NCBI GenBank assembly: GCA_020632155.1
Contig: JACKGE010000001.1
Coordinates: 314,285 to 378,284 of the forward strand
Direction of reading: 5' to 3'
Source of the DNA: Candidatus Nomurabacteria bacterium
Lineage (GTDB): Bacteria > Patescibacteriota > Minisyncoccia > Phycocordibacterales > UBA918
Length of the DNA: 64,000 nucleotides
The stretch's first letter is position 1. Every line of letters starts with the position of its first letter. The position numbers and the translations under genes were made by a program. Positions 16,731 to 64,000 of the stretch are shown here, piece by piece. The notes beneath the pieces are model-generated. The model was given only the letters and a program-made list of their open reading frames with translations. It did not search any database and had not been told where the DNA came from.

Positions 16731-18923
16731 CTATTGCTCATCAGAATATTCATCCTCTGCGCCTGCATCACTGCCGCCATTCATCAGCACCTCGCGCGGA
16801 CGTGACCCGTCTTGTGGCCCGATGACACCTTTCTCTTCGAGAATATCCATAAGGCGCGCCGCGCGTGAGTAGCCAATGCGGAGTTTGCGCTGCAAGTACG
16901 AGGTTGACGCTTTACCCGCCTCCATAACCGCCTGTCTAGCCTCCTCATAGAGGTCGTCACCGTCTTCGTCGTCAATCATGGCGCCAAATGTTGATTCACT
17001 GTTGTTGCCAGCAATATCATCAAGGTCTATCGAATCAAGTTCCTGAGCGTCTATCTGATCCTTGAGGTACTTCACTACTCGCTTCAGCTCATCTTCGCTG
17101 ACAAAGGCTGATTGCATACGAATTGGCTTCGCTAGTTCACCGGAAAGGAAGAGCATATCTCCTTGTCCAAGGAGTTTCTCGGCTCCCACTTGGTCGAGAA
17201 TGGTCCGTGAGTCTATTTGTGAAGCTACCTGTAGCGCCAAGCGGCTCGGAATGTTGGCTTTGATGGTACCAGTAATGATATTGACCGACGGTCGCTGGGT
17301 AGCGAGCATGAGGTGAATACCAACCGCGCGGCTCATCTGAGCGAGGCGCACAATGGAGGCCTCAAGTTCCTTTGGATAGGCCTGCATCAGGTCAGCCAGC
17401 TCGTCCATTACAATAACGATATATGGCATCGGTTCCGGTAAGCTCTCGCGCTCCTCATCAGGACTACCGTCCTTCTCGAACTTTTCTTTAGCTGGCTTAT
17501 AGATGTTGTCATGGTAGGAACCGATGTCACGGACCTTTTCCGCCTGCAAGACATCGTAGCGTCGTTCCATCTCCTTGATGGCCCACTTCAGCGCAATAAG
17601 TGCTTTCTTAGGTTGGGTGATAACTGGCGTTAGGAGATGCGGAATGTCGTTGTAGAGGGTAAGTTCGACGCGCTTCGGGTCAACCATGATGAAGCGGAGT
17701 TGGTCCGGTGAGTTCCTAAAGAGTAGGGAGGTGACGAGGGTATGGATGGTGACCGACTTACCCGAACCGGTGGTACCGGCAATAAGGGCGTGCGGCATTT
17801 TAGCCACGTTCGCAAAGTGCACGTGACCGGTGATGTCTTTACCGAGCGCAACCAGAAGTGGCTTCGGTGAGTCAGTGAATTCAGCGCTTGAGAGTAGTGA
17901 CGCAAGACCAACAGTAGACTTAGCGCTGTTTGGCACCTCAATACCCACGAGTGACTTGCCAGGAATCGGTGCTTCGATACGGATAGGGGAGGCTGCGAGG
18001 GCAAGCTCAAGGTTGTTCTGAAGACCAACTATCTTCGAGATGCGGACCCCTTCTGCTGGCTTCAGTGAGTAGCGGGTAACGGTTGGGCCAATAGATACCT
18101 CGTCCATCTCTACTTCAATACTGAAGTTCTTAAGAGTTCGTTTGATGATATTGGCGTTAGCTTTGACGTCACCGCTCTTAGCTTTCCCGCGGTCTTTTAG
18201 TAGGAGTGAGAGGGGAGGTGGGTTGTAAGTCCCTTCAAAGCTGGAAACAGCAAAGTCAGCCGCGCCCTTAGAGAGGCCCAGCCGTTCTTTGACGGACAGT
18301 TTCTTTGGTGAGTCCTCCTCTGCATCTTCAGTATCCTCCTCAGCCTCTTCGTCAGATTCTTCACCTTCTTCATCCTCCAGTCCGAGGTGTTCCATTTCGT
18401 CGTCATCGAGTGCCTCCTCGTCTTCACTGCGCTCACGGCGGGTGAAGAGTCGAGACAGTGCGAGGCTGGTGTCAAACGTAAGGAAGATACCTATTATGAC
18501 AAGTGCACCGAGTACAATGCCGGTGGCCAGTGATCCCATCAAATAGGTGAGAGGTGCCTCAATAGCCATACCGGTGATACCGCCGAGGTCCTGATGGTAG
18601 AGTTCAAAGAATCCCAGCAGGGAAACGAACATAAGAGCGATACCAATAATCTTTGAAGTACTGACCTCCTGATCGTCTTTAGGCTTTAGCATTGCGTAGA
18701 CGTAAAAGAGACAGGCAACCGGCGCAAGGTGAGCGCCGCCACCGAAAAGAAAATCAAGCGCCGTTTTAGTTAAGCTTCCTACACGTCCTGCAAAACCAAA
18801 GAGTGACAGCCAGAAATAGACAGCGAGGACCACAAACACGACTGCAGCAATAGCTTGTTTAGTGTGAGGTGAGAGATCATCAAAATATGCTTTCTTTGGT
18901 GGTTGCTTTTTTCGGGCGGCCAT
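16731..18923 (-). CDS. ftsK: DNA translocase FtsK/SpoIIIE
   Basis: N-terminal TM segments, acidic linker, motor domain (...HALIAGTTGSGKSVTIHTLVTSLLFRNSPDQLRFIMVDPKRVEL...) and C-terminal gamma winged helix. Confidence 0.9.
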   Translation of the reverse strand: MAARKKQPPKKAYFDDLSPHTKQAIAAVVFVVLAVYFWLSLFGFAGRVGSLTKTALDFLFGGGAHLAPVACLFYVYAMLKPKDDQEVSTSKIIGIALMFVSLLGFFELYHQDLGGITGMAIEAPLTYLMGSLATGIVLGALVIIGIFLTFDTSLALSRLFTRRERSEDEEALDDDEMEHLGLEDEEGEESDEEAEEDTEDAEEDSPKKLSVKERLGLSKGAADFAVSSFEGTYNPPPLSLLLKDRGKAKSGDVKANANIIKRTLKNFSIEVEMDEVSIGPTVTRYSLKPAEGVRISKIVGLQNNLELALAASPIRIEAPIPGKSLVGIEVPNSAKSTVGLASLLSSAEFTDSPKPLLVALGKDITGHVHFANVAKMPHALIAGTTGSGKSVTIHTLVTSLLFRNSPDQLRFIMVDPKRVELTLYNDIPHLLTPVITQPKKALIALKWAIKEMERRYDVLQAEKVRDIGSYHDNIYKPAKEKFEKDGSPDEERESLPEPMPYIVIVMDELADLMQAYPKELEASIVRLAQMSRAVGIHLMLATQRPSVNIITGTIKANIPSRLALQVASQIDSRTILDQVGAEKLLGQGDMLFLSGELAKPIRMQSAFVSEDELKRVVKYLKDQIDAQELDSIDLDDIAGNNSESTFGAMIDDEDGDDLYEEARQAVMEAGKASTSYLQRKLRIGYSRAARLMDILEEKGVIGPQDGSRPREVLMNGGSDAGAEDEYSDEQ

Positions 18924-50605: not shown

Positions 50606-51049
50606 ACTGGCCACTGTTCACGGGAGTGAAGAACGCGTTTTTAAAGCGCGTTTCGAGTTTGGGTAAGTTCCTACTCGCACTGTCGGAGGGAGCAGCGTTT
50701 TTCGACAATACTCATCTGCACACATCAGCCAACAATTTATTTTTGTCTGATGTGTGCTGGTGAGGGTCATGTGTTTCAAAAGATTAATTGGAGAAACAGA
50801 TGATTTGAATAGATCAAATCAATCGACCTTATGATTGATTTGAGTACCAAGTTGTAATCAATTTATTTTGGTTATGACGGTACGCATCAGCAAGACAATT
50901 GAAATTTGTTTTTTCTTTTGTCTTATCCTTTAGGAGGTTCATTGAAGAGCGCTAACAGAGTACAGCGCACCGGAATGATGCATCTGCATGATTTCGATAG
51001 TAGATGAACCCAGGTAAGAACTACTTTAAGTAGATCCAAACCTGTCTTA

Positions 51050-52503
<1,454 letters not shown>

Positions 52504-52631
52504 AATTGGACACGTCGTGGTTGCTCTGGTAACAGAGTGACAACTCGCGGCTAATTGGTCGGTCTTATGTGCCTCAATTGAGCATGTAAGAGGTAATGAT
52601 ACTTGAACCTTTAGCTAGTATTTGACTGTAG

Positions 52632-52942
52632 GGAAAGACCTACCCCAAAAAGGATAAGACAAAAGAGATAGCAAAGACAAGAAAGACGCTTACACCCTTG
52701 GTATAAGCGTCTTTCTTGTTGCGCAAGCACATACTTTTGTGACCCACTTTGAGAGGTTGGTCTACGCGAGCGAAAGCCCCGCTTACAGCGGCTGTTCAGG
52801 TTGATGTTATTTTTCATTCTTCAAAATAACTAGCAACCTCTTGCGAAGTGACATTTAGTCACTTCTCACCCCAAAAAGGATAAGACAAAAGAAGATGCAA
52901 ATAGACAAGAAAAAATGACCCAGCACTGCTGGGTCATTTTTT
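52632..52942 (+). repeat. Duplicated module downstream of the 16S. Direct repeat CCCCAAAAAGGATAAGACAAAAGA (52632 and 52869), each followed by a long terminator-like hairpin (52677-52718; 52901-52942)
   Basis: Direct reading. Hairpins CAAGAAAGACGCTTACACC-cttg-GTATAAGCGTCTTTCTTG and CAAGAAAAAATGACCCAGC-actg-CTGGGTCATTTTTTCTTG. Confidence 0.6.
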
Positions 52943-52968: not shown

Positions 52969-53499
52969 TTAATTCGGTCGTGGAGTTGGAGTCGGTACTT
53001 GGGAATCACTATAGGGGTTTGGCGTTGGGGTTGGAACTCGCGACTCGTCATATGGATTATTCGGATTTGCCGTCGGTACCACATTAGTGTTATCAGGCAG
53101 GTCGGTATAGTTATTGCTTGGGCTGAAATTGTTTGTATTTTCAGATCTACCAAAGAATTCAAACCCGACGCTGAAATCGAAGAATGTCCAAGCGCTGCCA
53201 TTTCTCCACGAGCCCTCTTCAACATAGTCGGAGTTAAGCGGATAATCATTATTGAAACCAAGTCCACTGATTAACAAGTTTACAATACCCCAAATGCTCA
53301 TCAGAAATACAAAGGCAGCAATGCCGTAGATGGCTTGTTGCTTGGCTTGCTCGCGTGCGGCCGCGTCATCTCCCTTAAGGATAAAGTACTGGAAGGTGCG
53401 GTAGAGAAAAAAAAGTAAACCAACCGCGAAGAGGAAGGGAATAAGGATACTGTTAATGAAGACACCAATAGCAACCAGATATTCTTGTAGGCTATTCAT
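52969..53499 (-). CDS. Small two-TM protein with VirB2/TrbC-pilin-like topology plus a Pro/Thr/Asn-rich C-terminal tail (putative)
   Basis: MNSLQEYLVAIGVFINSILIPFLFAVGLLFFLY-(basic loop)-AIYGIAAFVFLMSIWGIVNLLISGLGF. Tail ...PTPTPNPYSDSQVPTPTPRPN. Confidence 0.3.
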   Translation of the reverse strand: MNSLQEYLVAIGVFINSILIPFLFAVGLLFFLYRTFQYFILKGDDAAAREQAKQQAIYGIAAFVFLMSIWGIVNLLISGLGFNNDYPLNSDYVEEGSWRNGSAWTFFDFSVGFEFFGRSENTNNFSPSNNYTDLPDNTNVVPTANPNNPYDESRVPTPTPNPYSDSQVPTPTPRPN

Positions 53500-53784
53500 A
53501 CTGGCAATTTTACCGCAAAATGGTCTTTTTTGGGCTGCACAAGCGGGATAAATAGTTTACGTTTGTGGGGTTTTTTGGTAGTATTGCGGGACTTTTGCAG
53601 AGTTTGACGACGTTGAACCCTGTGTCCGGGCTTATGGCTCTGAAACATAAACTGCTTTATGTTTCAGCCGGTCGTGACGTCAGGAACGAATTGCCGATAT
53701 TTATGAGGCGATAGGGTGGCTAGACAAGAGTTCGACTGACTTCTTACAGAAGCTGTCCAGTTTTTCAAAATTTTTTAAATTTGT

Positions 53785-53858
53785 CCGGGCTTAGCTCAGT
53801 TGGCTAGAGCGTTCGACTGATACTCGAAAGGTCCAAGGTTCAAATCCTTGAGCCCGGA
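53785..53858 (+). tRNA. tRNA-Ile (anticodon GAT), stand-alone
   Basis: Acceptor CCGGGCT/AGCCCGG, D-arm GCTC-AGTTGGCTA-GAGC, anticodon stem TTCGA/TCGAA with loop CTGATAC, T-arm CAAGG-TTCAAAT-CCTTG, discriminator A. No encoded CCA. Confidence 0.8.
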
Positions 53859-54064
53859 CAAATTTCGAAAATTTCAGAAAAACTCTTGCGTTGCTCCAAG
53901 TGTTCGCAACTCACTCGAAAGGTCCAAGGTTGACCTAGAAATTAGGGAGAGTTTACTCGACCATAATTTCGAAAATACTCTTGTGGTGGACCTAGAAAAT
54001 AATGACCGAAGGGAATATATTTTCGAAAATACTCTTGTGGTGCAAATCCTTGAGCCCGGACAAA
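53859..54064 (+). repeat. tRNA-Ile 3'-fragment copies interleaved with ~54-nt tandem repeats (att-like remnant)
   Basis: Partial tRNA copy TTCGCAACTCACTCGAAAGGTCCAAGGTT (53903-53931). Exact copy of the tRNA 3' end CAAATCCTTGAGCCCGGACAAA (54043-54064). Direct repeats (A)ATTTCGAAAATACTCTTGTGGTG at 53965-53988 and 54019-54042. Confidence 0.7.
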
Positions 54065-54228
54065 GGCTTTTATCATGGTTGATTTTCGACTGCCCGCTTA
54101 CAGCGGCTAGTCAGATTGTCAGTATTTTTCACAAGTTCAAAATACTAGGCAACCTCTTGCGAAAGTGTCTGGTGCTCGGACAAAAAGTGAGCTTTATTTT
54201 TAAAGCGCTTTGCACTAGTATTACACCC

Positions 54229-55572
54229 ATGGATTTCTCGGAACAGTTCAAAGGCAAGAAGATAACGGTTATGGGGCTCGGTCTTTTGGGTCGGGGTGTT
54301 GGTGACGCAGCGTATTTAGCCGAATGTGGCGCAGAAGTGACGGTTACCGACCTCAAATCTGAGGAACAACTTACCGATTCGGTCGAAAAACTTAAATTGT
54401 ACCCAAACGTACGTTTTGCGCTCAACGGACACAAAGAAGAAGATTTTGAAAACGTTGATATGGTACTTGTCGCTGCTGGGGTGCCGTTTGACTCTCCATA
54501 TTTAGCTCATGCCCATAAGGCCGGTGTGCCATTGAAGCAAAGTGCGGCACTCTTTGCTGAGTTATCTGGCATTCCTATTATTGGCGTTACCGGTACCCGC
54601 GGTAAAAGTACGGTCACTGCTATGGTCCATCATGTTCTGTCGGTCACTACCGGTGAACACATCATTAAGGGCGGTAATGTGCGTGGTGTCTCTAATTTAC
54701 AGTTGCTCAAAGAAGTGAAAGAAGACTCGTTAGCGGTACTGGAGCTTGATTCATGGCAATTGCAAGGTTTTGGGTGGGCTGGTATTTCACCGCAGATCGT
54801 GGTCTTCACCAATTTCATGCCCGATCACATGAATTACTATAAGAATGATATGGACGCATACTTTACGGATAAAGCAAACATCTTTTTACACCAAAAAGAG
54901 AGTGGCGTGTTCATCACGGTGCCGGAGGTATTTGAACGAGCAAAAAAAATGGCAGGCACACTTGGTCAGGAGGTGGTGTTGGTGGATGATTCAACCTTGC
55001 CAGAGGACGTACTGCTTTCAATGCCAGGTGAGCACAATCGCCTCAATGCCGCTCTAGCGGTGGCGGCCCTTCGCGCTGTTAGCCTCACGGATGAGGAAAT
55101 ATTTACTGGTCTTGCCAGTTTCTCTGGCGTTGAAGGTCGCTTGCAACTGCTCACAACCGTCGACAATGTTCGTATCTACAACGACAACAATGCCACTACA
55201 CCGCAGGCCACCGTAGCGGCTCTTGAAGCCCTTGATGTTGGCAACAAAAACATTGTGCTTATTGCGGGCGGCGCTGATAAAGGCCTTGAACTACTGCAGT
55301 TAACTGCGGCAATCAGGGAGCACTGTAAGCAAACAATACTTATCCCGGGTACCGGTACAGAGAGATTGCTCGCAGCTCTAGAGGGGGGAAATAGTACGGT
55401 TAACCGTACTATAGCAGTAGAAGATTTGCAGCAGGCAGTAGAAGAGGCGCGGCTGGCAGCCAAAAATGGCGATATTATCCTCTTTAGCCCAGCCTTCTCA
55501 TCATTCAGTCAGTACAATAATGAATATGAGCGTAATGATGAATTTGTTGAGTTAGTGAAAAAATATGAGTAA
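54229..55572 (+). CDS. murD: UDP-N-acetylmuramoyl-L-alanine--D-glutamate ligase
   Basis: MDFSEQFKGKKITVMGLGLLGRGVGDAAYLAECGAEVTVTD...IIGVTGTRGKSTVTAM... Start trimmed: the track ORF's first 127 codons read through tRNA fragments and repeats. Family-A palindrome embedded in-frame at 55391-55412. Confidence 0.85.
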   Translation: MDFSEQFKGKKITVMGLGLLGRGVGDAAYLAECGAEVTVTDLKSEEQLTDSVEKLKLYPNVRFALNGHKEEDFENVDMVLVAAGVPFDSPYLAHAHKAGVPLKQSAALFAELSGIPIIGVTGTRGKSTVTAMVHHVLSVTTGEHIIKGGNVRGVSNLQLLKEVKEDSLAVLELDSWQLQGFGWAGISPQIVVFTNFMPDHMNYYKNDMDAYFTDKANIFLHQKESGVFITVPEVFERAKKMAGTLGQEVVLVDDSTLPEDVLLSMPGEHNRLNAALAVAALRAVSLTDEEIFTGLASFSGVEGRLQLLTTVDNVRIYNDNNATTPQATVAALEALDVGNKNIVLIAGGADKGLELLQLTAAIREHCKQTILIPGTGTERLLAALEGGNSTVNRTIAVEDLQQAVEEARLAAKNGDIILFSPAFSSFSQYNNEYERNDEFVELVKKYE

Positions 55573-56848
55573 TTACAAGCGTATACATTTCATTGGCGTT
55601 GGTGGGATTGGGATGTCGGGTTTGGCGCGGCTGTATTTGCATGAGGGCGCTGTGGTAAGTGGTAGCGACCGCGCGCTCTCTGACCTCACGAGAGCGCTCG
55701 AAGCCGAGGGCGTGACTTTTTTTGCTGAACAAAGCGCAGAGAATATTACAAACGATATTGATTTGGTGGTGTACACCGAGGCGATGAGTAAAGATCATCC
55801 GGAGATGACGGCGGCGCGTGCCCTCGGAGTGCCGATGATGAACTACTTTGAGGCACTGGGTGCCGTGGCCAATGAGTACTACCTCATTGCAGTAGCTGGA
55901 ACACACGGCAAGACCACCACCACTGCCATGCTGATAGACATTTTTGAGCAAGCCGGTCTCGATCCTACTGCCATCGTTGGTTCGCTTCGCAGTAGTACTG
56001 GCAAGAATTATCGAGCGGGGAAGAGCAAGTATTTTATCGTTGAGGCCTGTGAGTATAAACGGGACTTTTTAAGTCTTAACCCCGATGTGCTCGTTATTAC
56101 TAATATTGAGCCGGAGCATCTCGATTACTACCACGACCTTGCTGATATTCAGTCAGCCTTTACTGAACTAGCCACTAAGGTGCCAGCAGAAGGCGCAATC
56201 ATCGCGAGCGTGCGTGATGCCAATGTAGCGCCGGTCCTTGAGGGTGTTGCGGCCACAGTGATCGATTATAAAGACAGCGTTGACCTAGTGTCACCAATGA
56301 AGCAACCCGGACTTCATAATCGCTTTAATGCCGCCGCAGCGCGCGCGGCAGCAACTTTTTGCGGTGTCGCAGAGGGCGTTGCAGGGCAGGCAACCAGCGA
56401 GTTTGCCGGCACGTGGCGTCGCTTTGAATACAAAGGCGAGTTACAAGGGGCGCCTATCTACGATGATTACGCGCATCACCCAACGGAACTGGCAGCCACT
56501 ATGGCCGGTGCGCGTGAGCTGTATCCAGACAAGAACTTGGTGGTAGTGTTTCAGCCACACCTCTATTCACGCACGGCTGAGCAGTTTGATGGTTTTGTAG
56601 CAGAACTCTCTAAAGGCGATCAAGTGATTTTGACCCATGTCTACGATGCGCGCGATACCGGTGGTGGGGTAACAGGAGAGCGGTTGGCAGTAGCAGTGAA
56701 AGAGAAAAACCCGAATACGGAGTATTTTGAAAAGTTTGATGATATTGTGGCAAATCTCAAGGAGACCATTATAAAAGATGACGTAGTGCTTGTAGTGGGA
56801 GCGGGGGATGTTTCGAGTGTCGCTACCAATTTGACAAAACACTTTTAA
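55565..56848 (+). CDS. murC: UDP-N-acetylmuramate--L-alanine ligase
   Basis: IHFIGVGGIGMSGLARLY...AVAGTHGKTTTTAML... Confidence 0.9.
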   Translation: MSNYKRIHFIGVGGIGMSGLARLYLHEGAVVSGSDRALSDLTRALEAEGVTFFAEQSAENITNDIDLVVYTEAMSKDHPEMTAARALGVPMMNYFEALGAVANEYYLIAVAGTHGKTTTTAMLIDIFEQAGLDPTAIVGSLRSSTGKNYRAGKSKYFIVEACEYKRDFLSLNPDVLVITNIEPEHLDYYHDLADIQSAFTELATKVPAEGAIIASVRDANVAPVLEGVAATVIDYKDSVDLVSPMKQPGLHNRFNAAAARAAATFCGVAEGVAGQATSEFAGTWRRFEYKGELQGAPIYDDYAHHPTELAATMAGARELYPDKNLVVVFQPHLYSRTAEQFDGFVAELSKGDQVILTHVYDARDTGGGVTGERLAVAVKEKNPNTEYFEKFDDIVANLKETIIKDDVVLVVGAGDVSSVATNLTKHF

Positions 56849-56887
56849 TATAGTTTATTTGTAACGGACGCAAACAGGGAGGGTCCA

Positions 56888-57370
56888 ATGAAATTTTTGT
56901 ATGGAGCGACCCGTTGGGTCATTCTTGTTGGGCCAGTTGCGTTGAAGATAGCGCGTTTCCGCCCGTACCGCTTAGTTGCAAGACTTTTTGTACATGCTCG
57001 TAATGGCGAAGTAAGGATGCGACTCGACAAATTCGACAGTCGTTCCAAGCTCGTCGCCGTCTGCAGGTACATTGGGGCAGGTGTGTCGGCCAACCGAGCT
57101 GAATACCATTTGTACAGGGAAGATGAGCGGCTCCGTCTGATACCGGTGAAAAGTATCTGGTTCTGGGGTCTTGTTCTTGTTCAGTCGCGGGGCGATGCAA
57201 TTCCTCACGACTGTGCCGAAGAGGCCACAAGTCATCCTATGTGGTCAGCGATGCTGGAAGAGGCTGGTTCTGCAAATAAAGCGCTAAAGCAATTTTGTCT
57301 CTTCAACGGACGACCACATCTCGCTGACTATGGCAGATGGGACCTAGAAGGAGTAATCAAAACTGTTTGA
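56888..57370 (+). CDS. Hypothetical basic R/W-rich protein with a strong GGGAGGG SD (atypical for this genome)
   Basis: 160-aa ORF, ~52% GC, cagGGAGGGtccaATG. Confidence 0.35.
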   Translation: MKFLYGATRWVILVGPVALKIARFRPYRLVARLFVHARNGEVRMRLDKFDSRSKLVAVCRYIGAGVSANRAEYHLYREDERLRLIPVKSIWFWGLVLVQSRGDAIPHDCAEEATSHPMWSAMLEEAGSANKALKQFCLFNGRPHLADYGRWDLEGVIKTV

Positions 57371-57443
57371 ACATCAATTTGAAGCGTCGGCCATGGGAGT
57401 GGCCGAGCTTTTCTTTTTTATAAAAACGAGCTAGGCTACGCGC

Positions 57444-58151
57444 ATGGAAGAGAAAGGAACGCTATCAATAGCTGCCACCCCGATCGGGAACCTTGAGGAC
57501 ATTACCTTGCGTGCTCTTCGAGTGCTCAAAGAAGCCGATTATGTACTCTGTGAAGATACGCGGGTAACGGGGAAGCTACTCAAACACTACAATATTGAAA
57601 CCAAGCTCAAACGCTATGACGCACACGCGAGCGAAAAAGTACACGAGCAAGTATTGGCTGATCTCGCAGCAGGGAAACATATTGCCTTGGTGAGCGATGC
57701 TGGTACGCCGAGCGTGAGTGATCCGGGGGTACTGTTGGTGTCAAACGCGCGCGCCGCAGGCGCGCGCGTTGAGACCATTCCCGGCCCTTCAGCGGTGACG
57801 GCAGCTTTCTCTATTGCCGGACTCACCGGCAACCAGTTCACTTTCTTGGGTTTTGTACCACAGAAAAAGGGACGTGAGACTTTTTTCAAAGCGCTGGCGG
57901 AGTATGATTATCCGGTTATTTTCTTTGAATCAACACACCGCATTATGAAAACCCTCCATGCTTTATCAGAAACGTATGGGGAAAATAGTACGATATATCG
58001 TACAATAATGGTGGCGAGAGAATTGACCAAAATGCATGAAGAAATGGTCCTAGGCACTCCCGAGGAGGTGTTGACCTATTTTGAAAGCTCTCCAGAAAAA
58101 CAGCGAGGGGAGTTTGTAGTCATTGTGGCCCCAGAAGGACGTGCGGTATAA
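57444..58151 (+). CDS. rsmI: 16S rRNA (cytidine1402-2'-O)-methyltransferase
   Basis: GTLSIAATPIGNLEDITLRALRVLKEADYVLCEDTRVTGKLLKHY...ARELTKMHEE. A 16-bp palindrome GTACGATATATCGTAC is embedded at 57987-58002. Confidence 0.85.
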   Translation: MEEKGTLSIAATPIGNLEDITLRALRVLKEADYVLCEDTRVTGKLLKHYNIETKLKRYDAHASEKVHEQVLADLAAGKHIALVSDAGTPSVSDPGVLLVSNARAAGARVETIPGPSAVTAAFSIAGLTGNQFTFLGFVPQKKGRETFFKALAEYDYPVIFFESTHRIMKTLHALSETYGENSTIYRTIMVARELTKMHEEMVLGTPEEVLTYFESSPEKQRGEFVVIVAPEGRAV

Positions 58152-58158
58152 TACTGGG

Positions 58159-58401
58159 ATGAGTAGAGAATCTTTGGTTTTATTGGCCGGCTTGATTGTT
58201 TTCTTTGTCCCGGTCCTCGGTATTCCGATGATATGGAAGACATACCTTCTGTATGGCTTGGGAATACTCCTGATGATACTTGGTTTTTCGCTACGCCGAA
58301 GTTCATATCTGCGCAAGATCGACCGTGGTAATGGACAGCGTGCCACGGATTCCTTTGTTGAGAGTGATCCGATCGCATCTAATAATAACGATAGCGTATG
58401 A
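58159..58401 (+). CDS. Small two-TM membrane protein. Stop overlaps the next start (ATGA)
   Basis: MSRESLVLLAGLIVFFVPVLGIPMIWKTYLLYGLGILLMILGF... Confidence 0.3.
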   Translation: MSRESLVLLAGLIVFFVPVLGIPMIWKTYLLYGLGILLMILGFSLRRSSYLRKIDRGNGQRATDSFVESDPIASNNNDSV

Positions 58402-59744
58402 AACACTGGACCTTGGGTGCGTTCGGAGCAACGGCACTTGGTCTTGGTGCGGCAGGTGTCATCTGGCTGCCCGGTCTCACAACCGTTTCATACACAGCCA
58501 ACGTTGTATCGCCAGCCCAGCAGGAACGTCAAGCGGAGGCACTTTCCAGCAGTGAGCCTGATTCGATCACAGAGGTGGATAATCGACCGATTGTTAAGCA
58601 TGTTCCATTACCGAAGGCTGTTAAAGCCATCTACATGACCTCGTGCGTTGTTGGCACACCGTCATTTCGTGAGAAGTTAGTGACACTGGCTAATGAAACC
58701 GAGGTTAACAGTATTGTTATCGACATTAAAGACTTTTCGGGCACGCTCTCATTTCCGCCAGAACACGAAGAGTGGCAATCAGCTTGGCAGGAAGCACGAT
58801 GTGGTACTCGCGACATGCGGGACTTTGTGACGTCGCTACATGAGGCCGGATTATTTATTATTGGGCGTATCACTGTCTTCCAAGACCCGTTCTACACCAG
58901 TCGTCACCCTGAATTAGCAGTCAAAAAGGCTGATGGGGTGACTGTCTGGAAGGACTACAAGGGTCTCTCGTTCATTGATGTTGGTTCCAAGCCATACTGG
59001 GATCATCTTGTTATGTTGGCGGTTGATTCGTATAACGTAGGCTTTGACGAACTTAACTTCGATTATGTTCGGTACCCGTCAGACGGTCCGATGTCAGACA
59101 TCTCGTTTACGCAGTCACAGAGTTATCCAGATGACGATGACAAACAGGCAAATTTAGAGGCGTTCTTCAAGTACCTCAATGAGCGTCTTGATGACGAGTC
59201 GCTGTACGCTGCTTACAAACATGAGAACACTGGTCGCGACACCGCTACACCATGGACCAGTGCCGACCTTTTCGGCATGACCACTACCAACTACGATGAC
59301 CTATCAATCGGACAGGTGCAGGACCGCGCGGCACCATATTTTGATTTCATTGCCCCTATGGTCTACCCATCCCACTACCCAGACTCATTCCTTGGTCTTG
59401 GCGATCCTAACCTGTACCCCTATAAGGTGGTCAACTACGCCATGCAGTCAGGAGTTGACCGGATGATTGCCTCAACTACGCCAATGCAAGGCTTTTTGCA
59501 TACCCCGATATACACCACAAACGCCAGTGGTACTAAGGAATTCACCGGCCGCTACGAAAAACCAGTGTACACGGCTGATAAATTCCGCACCTGGATACAA
59601 GATTTTGACTATGGTGGTGATTATGATGCCGCTGACGTGCGGGCTGAGATACAGGCTAGTTATGACGCGGGAGTGAACTCGTGGATGATCTGGGCATCAA
59701 GTAACATCTATACCAGAGCCGCGTTGTTAGGTCCTTCTGAATAG
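58398..59744 (+). CDS. Secreted putative glycoside-hydrolase-like protein (GHL10 / DUF4015-like TIM-barrel)
   Basis: N-terminal anchor/signal, then ...AIYMTSCVVGT...NSIVIDIKDFSGT...FIIGRITVFQDP...GFDELNFDYVRYP... typical of the DUF4015 / YngK-like family. Confidence 0.5.
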   Translation: MKHWTLGAFGATALGLGAAGVIWLPGLTTVSYTANVVSPAQQERQAEALSSSEPDSITEVDNRPIVKHVPLPKAVKAIYMTSCVVGTPSFREKLVTLANETEVNSIVIDIKDFSGTLSFPPEHEEWQSAWQEARCGTRDMRDFVTSLHEAGLFIIGRITVFQDPFYTSRHPELAVKKADGVTVWKDYKGLSFIDVGSKPYWDHLVMLAVDSYNVGFDELNFDYVRYPSDGPMSDISFTQSQSYPDDDDKQANLEAFFKYLNERLDDESLYAAYKHENTGRDTATPWTSADLFGMTTTNYDDLSIGQVQDRAAPYFDFIAPMVYPSHYPDSFLGLGDPNLYPYKVVNYAMQSGVDRMIASTTPMQGFLHTPIYTTNASGTKEFTGRYEKPVYTADKFRTWIQDFDYGGDYDAADVRAEIQASYDAGVNSWMIWASSNIYTRAALLGPSE

Positions 59745-59790
59745 TGACGATACTGTTAACGACACGGTGTAAGAGTGATTCTGTTATACT

Positions 59791-61752
59791 ATGACCATGT
59801 CATACGATCCGGAGCGAATCACATTCTTTGCGCAAACAGACGCGCGCGGTAAGAATTTGCCCTTTGGTATCAAGGCCAAGGATCGTTCCCGCCATGTCTA
59901 CGTCATTGGTAAGACGGGTATGGGTAAATCGACCTTGCTCGAAAACATGGCTATTCAAGATATTCGCAATGGCGAGGGCGTTGCCTTTATCGACCCCCAT
60001 GGTCAGACTGCGGAAACCCTTCTCAATTACGTGCCGGAAGAACGCATCAAAGATGTGCTCTACTTTGCTCCGTTTGATATGGAGCACCCGGTCTCATTCA
60101 ATGTCATGGAAGACGTTGGTCCTGATAAGCGCCACTTGGTCGTCTCTGGCCTCATGTCGGTATTTGAGAAGATCTGGGTGGACGCGTGGAGCGCCCGTAT
60201 GGCGTACATTCTCCAGAACACACTGATGGCGCTCCTTGAGTATCCAGATTCGACCCTTCTTGGAGTGAACCGCATGCTATCGGACAAAAACTACCGCAAG
60301 AAGGTCGTTGATAATATTCAGGACCCGTCGGTAAAGTCATTCTGGGTAGACGAATTTGCCAAGTACAACGAACGGTACATGCAGGAAGCGGGAGACGCCA
60401 TCAAGAACAAGATCGGCCAGTTTACCGCCAACCCCCTCATCCGCAATATCATTGGTCAGCCAAAATCGAGTTTTGATATTCGCAAGATCATGGACGAGAA
60501 GAAGATCCTCATCATGAACCTCTCCAAAGGTCTCGTGGGTGAAACTAATGCCAACCTGCTTGGCTCGATGCTTACGACCCGCATTTATCTTGCAGCCATG
60601 AGCCGCGCTGATATGCCATATCAGCAGCTGCAGCAAATGCCGAATTTCTACTTTTATGTGGACGAGTTCCAGTCGTTTGCCAATGCTACCTTTGCGGACA
60701 TTCTTTCCGAGGCACGAAAGTACAAACTCAATCTCACCATTGCCCACCAGTATATCGAGCAGATGGAAGAAGAAGTCAAGAACGCGGTCTTTGGTAACGT
60801 CGGTACGATTATCTCATTTCGAGTCGGTCCGTTTGATGCTGAGGTGCTCGAGACCATCTTTGCACCGAAATTCACCGCTGTTGATATTGTTAACCTCGGT
60901 TTTGCACAAGTTTATATGACGCTCATGATCGACGGCATTGGCTCAGCGCCATTTTCTGCCACCACTATACCGCCACTGCAGCACCACGGTTTGTCGTACA
61001 AAGATGTTGTGGTTGATTCGAGTCGCAAACAATTTGCCCATGGTCGCAAAGAGGTAGAAGAGGCCATTTTCGGTTGGCACGAGATTGGTGAGGGTGACGA
61101 TAAAAATAAAAAGATCGCAGACTCTAAACGACTATCCGGTGATACTAAGCAGCGAACAGAACGGCCAAAGGAAGATAGGGGGAAGAATAGAGACAGAGAC
61201 AGAGACACACATAAAGACCGTTCACAGTCACGTAGTGGTGTGAACGATGCTAAAAGTAGTAGATCAGAACGACCACATACCAATAGTGAGCGACCAACAA
61301 AGCGTCCAGAGCGCGATAGCGAGAAGAAGTCACAACCTACGACCCCAAACAAAGATCTTACTGAGCTTCGTTCTATTCTCGCCACCATAGCCAAGCCGCA
61401 GAACGCTAATGCAGCCGAAAAGTCCAGTGATTCCCGTGGTCCAAGTGCTTCGAAAGAAAAGTCACCCGCTCAAAGCGCAGCTGCGGCGGACAACAAACAA
61501 GACCTACGAAGTGTCCTTGCTGGTGTGATAGGTAGTGCAACTGGAGAAAAACCCCAATCCATCGAAGAAAAAAAAGAGTCGCCGTCATCAAACCAAGCAC
61601 CAAAACCAGGCAACGCTGCAGTGGCGCAGTCTGTACCTATTGATACACAACCAAAACAATCATCAGCGCCGGAGAATACTTCCGAACTAGACCCCAAACA
61701 ACTCGAACGGATGATGCGTGTGACTACTAGCGATAGATCACCCCTTAAATAA
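59791..61752 (+). CDS. TrwB/TraD/VirD4-like coupling-protein P-loop ATPase (soluble, no N-terminal TM) with a ~230-aa disordered basic/Ser-rich C-terminal tail
   Basis: ...HVYVIGKTGMGKSTLLENMAIQDIRNGEGVAFIDPHGQ... parallels the TrwB/TraD Walker A and following Dxx(N/H)G block. Walker B-like ...FYFYVDEFQSF... The C-terminal third is K/R/D/S-rich low complexity. Confidence 0.55.
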   Translation: MTMSYDPERITFFAQTDARGKNLPFGIKAKDRSRHVYVIGKTGMGKSTLLENMAIQDIRNGEGVAFIDPHGQTAETLLNYVPEERIKDVLYFAPFDMEHPVSFNVMEDVGPDKRHLVVSGLMSVFEKIWVDAWSARMAYILQNTLMALLEYPDSTLLGVNRMLSDKNYRKKVVDNIQDPSVKSFWVDEFAKYNERYMQEAGDAIKNKIGQFTANPLIRNIIGQPKSSFDIRKIMDEKKILIMNLSKGLVGETNANLLGSMLTTRIYLAAMSRADMPYQQLQQMPNFYFYVDEFQSFANATFADILSEARKYKLNLTIAHQYIEQMEEEVKNAVFGNVGTIISFRVGPFDAEVLETIFAPKFTAVDIVNLGFAQVYMTLMIDGIGSAPFSATTIPPLQHHGLSYKDVVVDSSRKQFAHGRKEVEEAIFGWHEIGEGDDKNKKIADSKRLSGDTKQRTERPKEDRGKNRDRDRDTHKDRSQSRSGVNDAKSSRSERPHTNSERPTKRPERDSEKKSQPTTPNKDLTELRSILATIAKPQNANAAEKSSDSRGPSASKEKSPAQSAAAADNKQDLRSVLAGVIGSATGEKPQSIEEKKESPSSNQAPKPGNAAVAQSVPIDTQPKQSSAPENTSELDPKQLERMMRVTTSDRSPLK

Positions 61753-61759
61753 GCTAATC

Positions 61760-63145
61760 ATGTGGCGAAACTGGGCATTAAACACAGTGTTCGTGTTTTG
61801 TGCCGCCCCAGTAACTGCGCAGGCAGCAGTCATCATCAACGAGATCGCCTGGATGGGAACAGAAAGTTCAGCGAATGATGAGTGGATCGAGCTCTATAAC
61901 ACTGGTCCTACTGAGGTAGTACTTGATGGATGGGAAGTGTCTGATGGTATGAACCTCTCGATTGCTCTCAGTGGCACACTTTCGGCTGGTAGCCATGCCG
62001 TTCTTGAGCGAACTGATGACGATTCTGCTCACGGTGCTGCCTTTCTCATCTATACGGGGGCGCTCCCAAACACTGGTGCCACCATGCGTCTATATCGCGC
62101 TGACGGTTCAATAGAGGATCAAGTTGCAGGCGGTGAGAATTGGGAACTCATCGGTGGTGATAACGTCACCAAGGAGACGGCGCAGTATACGAGTAGTGGC
62201 TGGATAACCGCTGCTGCCACCCCCGGCCGTGAAAATGCTAGCACCGGAAGTACTGAGACTACTACAGAGACAAGTCAAGGAACAAAGACAACCACAACAT
62301 CGTCTACTGGTTCGGCAACTACCAAAGCAGTAAGTGCCGCTGACGAGCTGTCACATGAACTAACGCTCACGTTCTTGGTGCCGACTGTGGCCTACGTCGG
62401 ACAACCGGTCACTTTTACTGCTGAGGCGACTGGCCTTGGCGCCGGAGTGCTGAGTTCACTTCGCTACTCGTGGAATTTTGGTGATCTTGGTACCGCCAAA
62501 GGTGAAGAGGTGTCACATACGTATCGGTACCCTGGTAAATATATTATTAGTGCCCGTGGTGCGTACGGAGAATATGAAGCTATCAAAGAGGCAACCGTCA
62601 CTATTTTGCCAGTTGATCTCTCCATTACCCATTCGCCAACCGGTGACCTCCAGCTACATAACGATGCTAAATACACCATCGATCTCTCGCGCTTCACAGT
62701 TGCGGGTATTAAGTTGCCGGACCGGACCAAACTACTGGCGGGCAGTACGCTCACGATACCAAAACGTGACTTAGCGCCAAGTGCGCAGCTGCTCACCACG
62801 GTCTATGACAGTTCAGGCACGCTTGCCCTGATGTCAGGAGGTGAGACTACAGCGCAACCACAGAGTGAACCAACTGCTATAGCACCCTCAGTTGCGTTTG
62901 TGACACCTACTCCAGAACCGTACGTGGCGGCATCTGAGACTACTGATGGTGTCGATACACAATTTGTGTTTGCTGCTGAGGTATCAACCACCACACCTAC
63001 GGCTGCTGAAGTTAATTTTGGAGCGACTGACCAGCAGGCAGCCATAGCTGCAGCTCCCGCAACGCCTACATCGTCTCGCTGGCCGTACCTTGGCTTGGTT
63101 GGCGTTCTATTGGTAGGAAGTTTTGGTCTCTTGGTGCGGCAGTAA
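61760..63145 (+). CDS. Secreted Lamin-tail-domain (LTD) protein with a Thr-rich linker, PKD-like domain and C-terminal TM anchor
   Basis: Signal peptide, then ...AVIINEIAWMGTESSANDEWIELYNTG... (LTD hallmark), ...YSWNFGDLGTAKGEEVSHTYRYPGKYII... (PKD), and C-terminal WPYLGLVGVLLVGSFGLLVRQ. Confidence 0.6.
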   Translation: MWRNWALNTVFVFCAAPVTAQAAVIINEIAWMGTESSANDEWIELYNTGPTEVVLDGWEVSDGMNLSIALSGTLSAGSHAVLERTDDDSAHGAAFLIYTGALPNTGATMRLYRADGSIEDQVAGGENWELIGGDNVTKETAQYTSSGWITAAATPGRENASTGSTETTTETSQGTKTTTTSSTGSATTKAVSAADELSHELTLTFLVPTVAYVGQPVTFTAEATGLGAGVLSSLRYSWNFGDLGTAKGEEVSHTYRYPGKYIISARGAYGEYEAIKEATVTILPVDLSITHSPTGDLQLHNDAKYTIDLSRFTVAGIKLPDRTKLLAGSTLTIPKRDLAPSAQLLTTVYDSSGTLALMSGGETTAQPQSEPTAIAPSVAFVTPTPEPYVAASETTDGVDTQFVFAAEVSTTTPTAAEVNFGATDQQAAIAAAPATPTSSRWPYLGLVGVLLVGSFGLLVRQ

Positions 63146-63190: not shown

Positions 63191-64000
63191 ATGTCAGACA
63201 AACAGTCGATTGTGGTCGTGGGCGGTGGTACTGGTGCGTATACACTACTTTCTGGTCTTAAGGAGTATCAGGACACAATCGACATTACGGCTATTATCAA
63301 TATGTCTGACTCAGGCGGCTCTACCGGCCGCCTGCGCGACCAGTTCGGACAACTGCCGGTTGGTGACGTGCGCATGGCCTTGGCCGCGCTCGCTGACGAG
63401 AATACAGAACACGCTGGTCTGCTCCGTCAGCTTTTTATGTACCGTTTTGCTCAGGGCGACGGTCTCTCTGGGCACAGCTTTGGCAATCTCTTTTTAACTG
63501 CGCTCACTGATATCCTCGGCAGCGAAGCGGAGGCGGTTGCCGCTGCCGGAGAACTTCTTAACGTATCAGGACGGGTGGTACCAGTGACCGCCGATAACGT
63601 CCACTTAGTGGCTACCTATGATGACGGAGTAACCATAACGGGCGAACATGCAATTGATGCGCCAGCAGAGGACCGTACCGGACGGCGGATAGTGGAACTG
63701 CGAACGGAGCCGGCAGGAAGGCTCAGTGCTGAGGCAGATAAAGCGCTGCGCAACGCGGATGTTATCGTGATCGGTCCGGGCGATCTCTATTCCAGTCTGC
63801 TCGCAAATATAGTGATAGACGGTTTTGCTGAAGCAGTGGCGCGCAGTCGTGGTCGGGTAGTCTATGTTGCCAATCTGATGGAGCGCATCGGGCAGACTGA
63901 AGGCATGAGTGTCACCGATTGTACAAACGAAATCGGGCGTTATCTCGGTGTGAATCCTGATATCGTGCTTCTCAATCAGGCTGCGCTTCCAGCTGCAGTC
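63191..64000 (+). CDS. YvcK/CofD-like (UPF0052, gluconeogenesis factor / 2-phospho-L-lactate transferase family) protein; 3' end outside window
   Basis: MSDKQSIVVVGGGTGAYTLLSGLK...INMSDSGGSTGRLRDQFGQLPVGDVR... Open to the window edge. Confidence 0.7.
   Translation, partial: MSDKQSIVVVGGGTGAYTLLSGLKEYQDTIDITAIINMSDSGGSTGRLRDQFGQLPVGDVRMALAALADENTEHAGLLRQLFMYRFAQGDGLSGHSFGNLFLTALTDILGSEAEAVAAAGELLNVSGRVVPVTADNVHLVATYDDGVTITGEHAIDAPAEDRTGRRIVELRTEPAGRLSAEADKALRNADVIVIGPGDLYSSLLANIVIDGFAEAVARSRGRVVYVANLMERIGQTEGMSVTDCTNEIGRYLGVNPDIVLLNQAALPAAV

Follow-up and report, generated by a model that had tools for sequence, protein, structure and literature searches.

What does a conjugation-type ATPase do in a genome region that shows no conjugation machinery around it? 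The question is raised by a 64,000-nucleotide (nt) stretch of a Candidatus Nomurabacteria bacterium (contig JACKGE010000001.1, positions 314,285 to 378,284; called the window here). The organism belongs to the Patescibacteria, or candidate phyla radiation (CPR), a group that accounts for much of bacterial diversity and whose members are unable to make nucleotides and subsist on other cells. The window encodes an ATPase related to VirD4 and TrwB, the coupling proteins of type IV secretion systems (T4SSs), together with a surface protein carrying a lamin tail domain (LTD) and an antisense gene for a VirB2-like pilin. The original prediction, made without database searches, had brought these three genes together as possible parts of one apparatus for DNA acquisition or cell-cell transfer. 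Our core finding is a two-gene module of ATPase and surface protein, which sits within a same-strand block (rsmI, a gene for a small protein with two transmembrane [TM] segments, a DUF4015 gene, the ATPase gene, and the surface protein gene). The coordinates of all features are collected in Table 1.

A scan of one genome per species revealed a close homologue of the ATPase in at least 580 species, and the gene context was surveyed in the best 80 of these, which were chosen for ATPase similarity (73 to 88% identity). All 80 loci are from metagenome-assembled genomes (MAGs) of CPR bacteria (Kaiser-, Adler-, Nomura-, Zambryski-, and Taylorbacteria and the Paceibacterota type). In sequence, the window ATPase is 100% identical to a protein at NCBI that derives from a Candidatus Kaiserbacteria MAG, which identifies the source as a Paceibacteria-type CPR genome. 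Open reading frames (ORFs) were called in the related loci and then searched with profiles built from the window proteins. In the window, 7 nt separate the ATPase stop codon from the start of the LTD protein gene on the same strand; the spacing in related loci is usually 2 to 13 nt. With loci required to have 1.2 kb or more of downstream DNA, a homologous surface protein gene was found directly 3′ of the ATPase gene in 49 of 76, all from different species. The three genes had been described as not contiguous, which is true of the pilin gene (6.3 kb upstream of the ATPase, opposite strand) and does not apply to the ATPase and LTD genes. Likewise, the functional link proposed for all three narrows to this pair, with its recurrent pairing and a domain exchange described below, whereas the pilin is tied to neither partner. 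The conserved gene order suggests a functional link between the ATPase and the LTD protein, plausibly in a DNA-related process. No description of an ATPase/LTD-or-ComEA pairing was found in the literature searched. The coupling protein family and the orphan status of its members in CPR bacteria are already published; new, as far as we found, are the anchor-less, highly conserved ATPase subfamily and its recurrent operon with a surface protein bearing either an LTD or a ComEA-type helix-hairpin-helix (HhH) domain.

The surface protein (461 amino acids) has both the LTD and the PKD domain that had been predicted for it. Its signal-like N terminus and the hydrophobic segment near its C terminus mark it as an exported protein predicted to be tethered by a C-terminal TM helix via a long linker, so that the freely secreted form assumed earlier no longer fits. 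The second LTD-like region is divergent in the window protein; in orthologues, a second LTD was recognized after the PKD domain (locus L003, E = 1.9e-5; locus L080, E = 6.9e-9). A weak similarity to the signal and LTD region of the extracellular nuclease ExeM was also detected (E = 0.002). The surface proteins end with a [W/Y]P[Y/W]L.L.G motif, a TM helix, and 2 to 5 mostly basic residues (window, 63080 to 63145; L003, 12700 to 12796; L085, 8180 to 8247). This end resembles a sorting signal of the PEP-CTERM/GlyGly-CTERM type, and no NCBIfam CTERM model matched it.

The N-terminal module of the surface protein is exchanged among relatives. With the profiles made in this analysis, an LTD was detected in 35 loci and an HhH domain in 12; the window protein carries its LTD where the ComEA-type HhH sits in those 12 loci, and Pfam detects no HhH in it. 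Two of the HhH proteins were tested against PF12836 (L003, E = 7e-19; L085, E = 9e-23) and against TIGR00426, the “ComEA HhH repeat region” (54.3 and 71.4 bits, respectively, versus a cut-off of 53.1). The PKD domain, the second LTD-like region, the linker, and the C-terminal anchor are homologous across both types and thus form a fixed chassis. LTD and HhH types interleave among ATPase subclades that are 86 to 93% identical, indicating that the exchange occurred at least three times among close relatives; in the Kaiserbacteria locus L009, for example, an ATPase 87% identical to that of the window is followed by the HhH version. An alternation of LTD and HhH has been described in secreted DNases, where it was read as functional analogy (PMC4486849), and the LTD of ExeM contributes to DNA degradation in vitro, its role being unsettled (PMC6085458). 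By analogy, the LTD of the window protein may bind DNA.

The ATPase (653 amino acids) was matched by the Pfam families PF02534 (T4SS-DNA_transf), PF10412 (TrwB_AAD_bind), PF12696 (TraG-D_C), and PF01935 (DUF87). These matches are weak (E values of 1e-5 to 4e-7) and lie above the gathering cut-offs, with 28.2 bits versus 20.5 for PF10412. In NCBIfam, the best partial matches were SXT_TraD and the CD1115 VirD4-like family, both far under their cut-offs. No TM segment was detected in the ATPase, whose highest Kyte-Doolittle value over 19 residues (1.36) falls short of TM-type hydrophobicity, and because ORFs were listed from the preceding stop codon, the gene cannot be extended upstream. The earlier call of a TrwB/TraD-type ATPase without a TM anchor therefore stands, and so do the family assignments for which a profile check had been proposed (PF02534, TraG-D_C, and LTD above cut-offs; the pilin through PF18895). 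G40 and K46 of the Walker A motif are invariant across 121 family representatives, and D291 and E292 of Walker B are nearly so. The protein belongs to the lineage of type IV coupling proteins (T4CPs; VirD4/TrwB) and, its motifs being intact, is predicted to retain catalysis.

A first AlphaFold2 (AF2) model, built from 35 sequences of more than 83% identity, was poor (predicted local distance difference test [pLDDT] score of 66, residues 293 to 390 unresolved) and was replaced by a model from the 121-sequence alignment, which reached a pLDDT of 96.2 and a predicted template modeling score of 0.93. The new model shows a helical insertion in the P-loop domain (residues 111 to 235), the modeled counterpart of the all-alpha domain of coupling proteins. 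A Foldseek search of the PDB returned TrwB-deltaN70 as the top match (E = 2e-13, template modeling score of 0.61 to 0.63, about 440 columns), in an alignment that spans the full length and takes in the helical insertion; HerA, Cag-beta, and DotL came next. A translocase of the HerA/FtsK type was considered and rejected, since the DUF87 score is marginal, HerA ranks below TrwB with a template modeling score of about 0.5, and the all-alpha domain is present. Likewise, a role in a defense system, as for HerA-type partners, was considered and set aside, with no search of the PADLOC library, because the synteny is conserved and of a housekeeping kind and because TrwB fits better than HerA does. The window does encode a true FtsK, at another site (16731 to 18923).

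Among the related loci, the ATPase domain has a median identity of 75% to the window protein, followed by RsmI (61%), DUF4015 (59%), MurC (51%), MurD (50%), the small TM protein (38%), the surface protein (35%), and the ATPase tail (about 27%); this contrast is somewhat inflated, as the loci were picked by ATPase similarity. By this measure, the ATPase in its short, anchor-less form appears to be a chromosomal, strongly constrained gene of Paceibacteria-type CPR bacteria. CPR-type ATPase genes (74 to 88% identity) were also seen on two very short contigs labeled as proteobacterial, L007 (1.7 kb, “Vibrio sp.” MAG) and L046 (2.4 kb, “Gammaproteobacteria” MAG), a placement that most likely results from mis-binning. 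Many loci labeled “uncultured Candidatus Saccharibacteria” show Paceibacteria-type synteny, so these labels look doubtful.

Table 1. Features of the ATPase locus and its surroundings, in window coordinates
Feature	Position	Strand	Evidence or remarks
Gene order	52.9-64 kb		16S rRNA, pilin, tRNA-Ile, murD, murC, 160-aa ORF, rsmI, small 2-TM ORF, DUF4015, ATPase, LTD/PKD, YvcK/CofD-like start
16S rRNA	51047-52506	+	upstream of the pilin-like gene
Terminator-like hairpin, 20-bp stem	52677-52719	-	directly 3′ of the pilin gene; pattern match
Orphan VirB2-like pilin, 176 aa	52969-53499	-	PF18895 T4SS_pilin
tRNA-Ile(GAT)	53785-53859	+	other side of the pilin-like gene
Terminator-like hairpin	57387-57406		just 5′ of rsmI; pattern match
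rsmI (TP_methylase)	57444-58151	+	likely first gene of the same-strand block; synteny with Pfam-annotated TP_methylase of L002-L004
Small conserved 2-TM hairpin protein, ~80 aa	58159-58401	+	
DUF4015 putative glycosyl hydrolase, N-terminal hydrophobic segment	58398-59744	+	PF13200, E 5e-72
VirD4/TrwB-type coupling-protein-like ATPase without TM, 653 aa	59791-61752	+	Pfam, AF2 model, Foldseek
ATPase domain, residues 1-430	59791-61080	+	
Walker A, GKTGMGKST, residues 40-48	59908-59934	+	in 77/82 complete orthologues
Walker B, FYFYVDEF(Q), residues 286-293	60646-60669	+	hhDEFQ motif in 82/82 orthologues
Low-complexity disordered tail, residues 431-653 (223 aa)	61081-61749	+	composition, alignment
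Conserved C-terminal peptide of tail, LDPKQLERMMRVTTSDRSPLK	61687-61749	+	alignment consensus
Surface-anchored LTD/PKD protein, 461 aa	61760-63145	+	Pfam, hydropathy
N-terminal signal-like segment	start of 61760-63145	+	
LTD, residues 18-122	61811-62125	+	E 3.8e-16, 59.9 bits vs cut-off 34.3
PKD, residues 208-266	62381-62557	+	E 4.9e-10
Divergent second LTD-like region	after PKD	+	
Thr/Ala/Pro-rich linker	before anchor	+	
C-terminal TM anchor, residues 441-459	63080-63136	+	

The reading that we favor, with a probability of roughly 0.4, is that the ATPase is an exapted motor of the coupling protein type that works independently of a T4SS and moves DNA captured by the surface LTD/HhH receptor. 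A search of 1.84 billion representative proteins yielded 21,741 clusters at E values of ≤1e-3 and 5,808 at ≤1e-30, with two architectures: a short form, in which the ATPase domain is N-terminal and followed by the tail, and a long form with an N-terminal extension of 300 to 460 amino acids comprising TM helices and DUF8128. The ATPase domain of the CPR long forms is 45 to 52% identical to that of the window and is followed by a basic low-complexity tail. A profile search detected no separate gene for the TM and DUF8128 part in the window or in 85 related loci. The closest plasmid relatives of the ATPase are monoderm and archaeal T4CPs, so that the short form appears to be a derived branch of the monoderm T4CP lineage that is without an anchor; the pLS20-type plasmid T4CP, for example, shows about 30% identity, has an N-terminal extension of about 350 amino acids, and is encoded next to relaxase and VirB4-like genes. 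The comparison suggests that the short form lost an N-terminal membrane domain, which is still present in its CPR paralogues and in monoderm plasmid relatives.

Long-form genes are found in contexts that differ from those of the short form, often near secDF. In a Pfam scan of 45 small multi-TM ORFs near 82 metagenomic long-form loci, a single ORF (locus L087) matched the pilin family PF18895, and SecF was the commonest match (12 of 45); our own pilin profile, which is too narrow, gave no matches in these loci. In other CPR classes, two long-form DUF8128-T4CP paralogues were observed within about 10 kb (L086, 5558 to 8116 and 10001 to 13237; L087, 10001 to 12826 and 20701 to 22826), with secDF and a sigma-70 r4/HARE-HTH gene next to them; one of the L087 copies is followed by seven consecutive unannotated genes (107 to 321 amino acids). 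The closest non-CPR relative in PLSDB is a 395-amino-acid, ATPase-domain-only protein (39% identity) encoded on the Sulfitobacter mediterraneus plasmid NZ_CP081110.1 (locus L168, 99994 to 101181). This gene was dismissed as a functional clue, since it is isolated among transposases and uninformative on function.

A T4SS that the ATPase could serve was sought next to it. Pfam scans of the larger ORFs detected no VirB4, VirB6, relaxase, or ComEC in the 64-kb window, where the families found include tRNA synthetases, RecA, FtsK, ribosomal proteins, SecDF, and glycosyltransferases, and none was detected among the Pfam-annotated neighbors of four homologues (L002 to L005). Flank ORFs of at least 500 amino acids with no other explanation were collected from the 80 loci; no VirB4-like ATPase, VirB6, relaxase, or ComEC was seen among the 25 of their 72 matched families that were listed, where a weak single match could be hidden, and the 25 cluster representatives were envelope and housekeeping enzymes. 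These searches cover the window and the flanks of the related loci, and throughout them the co-localization with VirB4, VirB6, or ComEC that the original prediction had named as a check failed to appear. The lack of T4SS genes nearby indicates that the locus comprises an orphan coupling protein operon and an unrelated orphan pilin and not a scattered T4SS.

The ATPase might still act at a distance, as a conventional T4CP that serves the Patescibacteria T4SS (encoded near dnaA/dnaN in Paceibacteria) and delivers protein or DNA, the surface protein being a mere neighbor. Both family and fold identify it as a T4CP, and genes of this kind often lie at a distance from virB4 (PMC12102498); a FEMS review also counts a VirD4-like component among the parts of the Patescibacteria T4SS (PMC12857230). 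In addition, the CPR paralogues with TM and DUF8128 segments resemble monoderm plasmid T4CPs, and one of them adjoins a PF18895 pilin. We nevertheless consider this explanation rather unlikely. The ATPase has no TM anchor, and its tight, recurrent pairing with a surface protein that alternates between HhH and LTD would go unexplained. In the survey by Quinonero-Coronel et al. (2025), 5,713 VirD4-type homologues were found in 2,918 of 3,035 Patescibacteria genomes (96%), only 148 of them near virB4; VirB4 was present in 2,407 assemblies, fewer than T4CP, and relaxases were almost absent (PMC12102498). Furthermore, t4cp is non-essential in S. epibionticum, for which reason exaptation “cannot be ruled out” (PMC12102498), whereas T4SS genes are essential, and comEC is needed for transformation yet non-essential (Wang et al. 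2023; PMC10633639).

The pilin itself was called correctly. The protein has two hydrophobic segments (residues ~8 to 41 and 59 to 77) that form a two-helix hairpin, matches PF18895 above the gathering cut-off (E = 1.3e-8, 35.2 bits versus 26.6, residues 11 to 76), and weakly matches the NCBIfam Mbov_0395 pilin-like model. The hairpin is followed by an Asn/Pro/Ser/Thr-rich tail of 96 amino acids that varies greatly among orthologues. The gene lies between the 16S rRNA and tRNA-Ile genes, and its own terminator-like hairpin suggests that it is a monocistronic unit, single hairpins being hints only, since shuffled sequence yielded at least as many terminator and promoter matches. The pilin/tRNA-Ile arrangement recurs in seven related loci, where the shared position reflects general rRNA/tRNA/mur chromosomal synteny and not a functional cluster. 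The pilin is therefore a genuine PF18895 member, but an independent orphan that is not part of the ATPase operon.

This decides largely against assigning pilin, ATPase, and LTD protein to a single T4SS-like apparatus with scattered genes that would serve DNA acquisition or transfer between cells, a view that we regard as very improbable. All three proteins do carry T4SS- or DNA-flavored domains, and the pilin gene lies about 6 to 9 kb upstream of the ATPase gene in eight related loci. Yet it is antisense, has its own terminator-like hairpin, and is split from the ATPase by tRNA-Ile, murD, murC, a 160-amino-acid ORF, and rsmI; neither VirB4 nor VirB6 was found in the window or flanks; and a pilin adjoins only 1 of the 82 long-form ATPase loci.

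The rrn operon around the pilin gene is split, with 23S-5S (32291 to 36164) about 15 kb from the 16S gene, which is followed by the antisense pilin and then tRNA-Ile(GAT). The 23S rRNA match (32291 to 35961, plus strand) spans 3,671 nt versus 2,925 nt in the model and so contains about 750 nt of insertion(s), and a 115-amino-acid ORF (35402 to 35749) lies inside it; the extra sequence may be an intron or an insertion as is common in CPR rRNA genes. Also in the window, an IS200-type Y1 transposase gene (26138 to 26827, plus strand) is directly followed by a gene for a small SLT-domain lytic transglycosylase (26857 to 27219) and an unannotated ORF of 123 amino acids.

If the favored explanation of a T4SS-independent motor is right, the soluble ATPase would need partners, and two features of the locus point to candidates. 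The first is the tail of the ATPase, previously described as about 230 amino acids long and basic/Ser-rich. Length and Ser content (14%, with 11% Lys and 9% Arg) agree with this; the tail is, however, only mildly basic (net charge of +9, from 45 K+R versus 36 D+E), and its conserved motifs show that it is not featureless. These are two internal “DL+..L” motifs, KDLTELRSILATI and QDLRSVLAGVI (alignment consensus), and the C-terminal peptide, which reads LDPKxLERMMRV..TPLK in close relatives and [VI]PE[DE].LR..L in others (82 orthologues). Such short motifs probably recruit partners. The second feature is the small two-TM protein. It shows the conserved motifs P.LGIP..WK and LRR.AYLR.I...GER..DSFVE and has no match in Pfam or NCBIfam. 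Its gene is located upstream of the ATPase gene on the same strand, always just after rsmI, in 62 of the 63 loci with at least 3.5 kb of upstream DNA; in nine loci, which lack DUF4015, it directly abuts the ATPase gene. In most related loci, the DUF4015 gene stands between the two and in some it is missing; in the window, the DUF4015 gene shares 4 nt with the small TM gene and stops 46 nt short of the ATPase gene. The small protein is a possible candidate for a membrane partner of the ATPase, a link proposed by analogy (see below).

The other neighbors recall a different function, namely, that the ATPase energizes the export or assembly of envelope components, with the LTD/PKD protein in a structural or adhesive role. 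murD, murC, DUF4015, a GT4 gene, an L,D-transpeptidase/DD-carboxypeptidase gene, and a YvcK/CofD-like gene are all found in the vicinity; a GT4 gene lies directly 3′ of the ATPase in 21 loci, and LTDs also occur with oligosaccharide-binding and membrane-associated hydrolases (PMC6085458). This explanation seems improbable to us: no T4CP, HerA, or FtsK-type ATPase is known as a glycan mover, in 12 species the place of the LTD is taken by a ComEA-type HhH, a module dedicated to DNA binding, and synteny around the mur genes is general to the chromosomes of these bacteria. The YvcK/CofD-like gene of the window starts within 63200 to 64000 (plus strand) and runs off its end; a gene of this kind was also seen 3′ of the surface protein gene in L003, so the synteny reaches beyond the pair.

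In the favored reading, that of a coupling protein motor exapted for captured DNA, the surface protein would capture extracellular double-stranded DNA, as ComEA does, and the cytoplasmic, hexameric ATPase would dock on a membrane partner, either the small two-TM protein or a ComEC channel encoded elsewhere. ATP hydrolysis would then pull a DNA strand in, or, less likely, push DNA out, while the amphipathic motifs of the disordered tail would recruit partners. Transport direction, membrane partner, and tail role are inferred here; import appears the likelier direction because the module is of the ComEA type and CPR bacteria are auxotrophic for nucleotides. In its most specific version, the short ATPase and the co-operonic LTD/ComEA-HhH receptor, perhaps with the small two-TM protein, would constitute an unrecognized, T4SS-free DNA import system of Paceibacteria-type CPR bacteria, in which a conjugation motor has been reversed or re-docked onto ComEC; this version is possible, if doubtful.

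The same gene pair evidence, which carries no direction, would fit an ATPase that pushes chromosomal DNA out, as in TdtA-type donation or gonococcal secretion, with the surface protein holding the DNA for a matrix or for transfer. Every characterized T4CP pushes DNA outwards, and TraJ of pIP501, a T4CP, binds single-stranded DNA (PMC4981023). Export nevertheless strikes us as quite improbable, since no relaxase, oriT-processing gene, or channel was found nearby, ComEA-type modules are known from uptake systems, and import is the expected need of CPR bacteria as nucleotide auxotrophs (PMC6744442).

Several observations count against the idea of a DNA-moving motor served by a surface receptor. 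Twenty-seven of the 76 loci have no adjacent surface protein gene, 21 of them carrying a GT4 glycosyltransferase gene there, so the ATPase is not strictly dependent on the surface protein in cis. With a cytoplasmic tail of 2 to 5 residues, the surface protein cannot contact the ATPase directly. In 34 of 63 loci, genes besides DUF4015 split the small two-TM gene from the ATPase gene, and their link may be mere synteny. The wider neighborhood is one of cell envelope biogenesis (murD, murC, DUF4015, L,D-transpeptidase/carboxypeptidase, GT4, and YvcK-like). That bacterial LTDs bind DNA is not established, and the LTD of ExeM is dispensable in vivo (PMC6085458). The conservation of the ATPase (75% versus about 50% for the Mur ligases) would be unusual for a dispensable competence factor, and no comEC, comFC, or dprA was seen near the pair.

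The locus offers an orphan T4CP a specific partner that can be put to the test, namely, a protein tethered at the surface and bearing at its tip either a ComEA module or an LTD. Should the pair move DNA, a conjugation ATPase would have given rise to a new route by which DNA is taken up or released, bacterial LTDs would gain a function, and DNA binding in ComEA-poor CPR bacteria would be easier to explain; only 31% of CPR genomes have an annotated ComEA, for which reason an alternative DNA-binding mechanism has been suggested (Meheust et al. 2019; PMC6744442). An import system would, moreover, explain the near-universal, strongly conserved orphan T4CP genes of CPR bacteria. If the pair does not move DNA, a constrained, anchor-less T4CP subfamily would still be set apart from true T4SS parts, which matters for the annotation of thousands of CPR genomes.

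How does the locus compare with known systems? The pilin shares the PF18895 profile match and the two-helix hairpin with the Patescibacteria T4SS pilins; in well over half of the pilin-bearing assemblies of the published survey a pilin gene is found near virB4, and some form arrays of 2 to 11 genes (PMC12102498), whereas the window has a single gene that is not near any virB4. The ATPase has the same Walker motifs as the CPR long-form and pLS20-type T4CPs, but begins with the ATPase domain in place of their N-terminal extension of 300 to 460 amino acids. With the T4CPs in general (TrwB of R388, VirD4, TraD, Cag-beta, and DotL), it shares the P-loop nucleotide-binding domain with an inserted all-alpha domain and, as in TraD, a C-terminal extension with short motifs of the interaction type, although sequence identity to TrwB is only about 13 to 14%. 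It differs from them in that it has no N-terminal TM domain and that T4SS genes, relaxase genes, and mobile elements are missing from its surroundings; it is chromosomal, lies in a housekeeping neighborhood, and is paired with a surface LTD/ComEA-like protein.

The surface protein is like ComEA in being extracellular and membrane tethered, in displaying a module that would bind double-stranded DNA non-specifically, and, in 12 related species, in carrying a bona fide ComEA-type HhH, and a cytoplasmic ATPase is encoded alongside it, as ComFA accompanies the ComEC-containing uptake machinery of Gram-positive bacteria. Unlike ComEA, it has an LTD, a PKD domain, and a second LTD-like domain, and its C-terminal anchor reverses the topology of Gram-positive ComEA; the motor is of the T4CP type, whereas ComFA is a DEAD-box helicase, and comEC is not adjacent.

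The T4SS lineage of CPR bacteria is nested in MPF-FATA (PMC12102498), the type of the Gram-positive pIP501 conjugation system, in which the T4CP ATPase TraJ has no membrane anchor and binds single-stranded DNA non-specifically, and TraI, a small membrane protein encoded just upstream, is thought to recruit TraJ to the membrane (PMC4981023). TraI and TraJ belong to a 15-gene conjugation operon with relaxase and VirB4, genes that the window lacks, and in the window DUF4015 separates the small TM gene from the ATPase gene, an interaction of the two products being putative. Here, too, a conserved gene for a small membrane protein, with two TM segments, lies upstream of a T4CP that has no TM anchor of its own, though directly next to it in only 9 of the 63 related loci.

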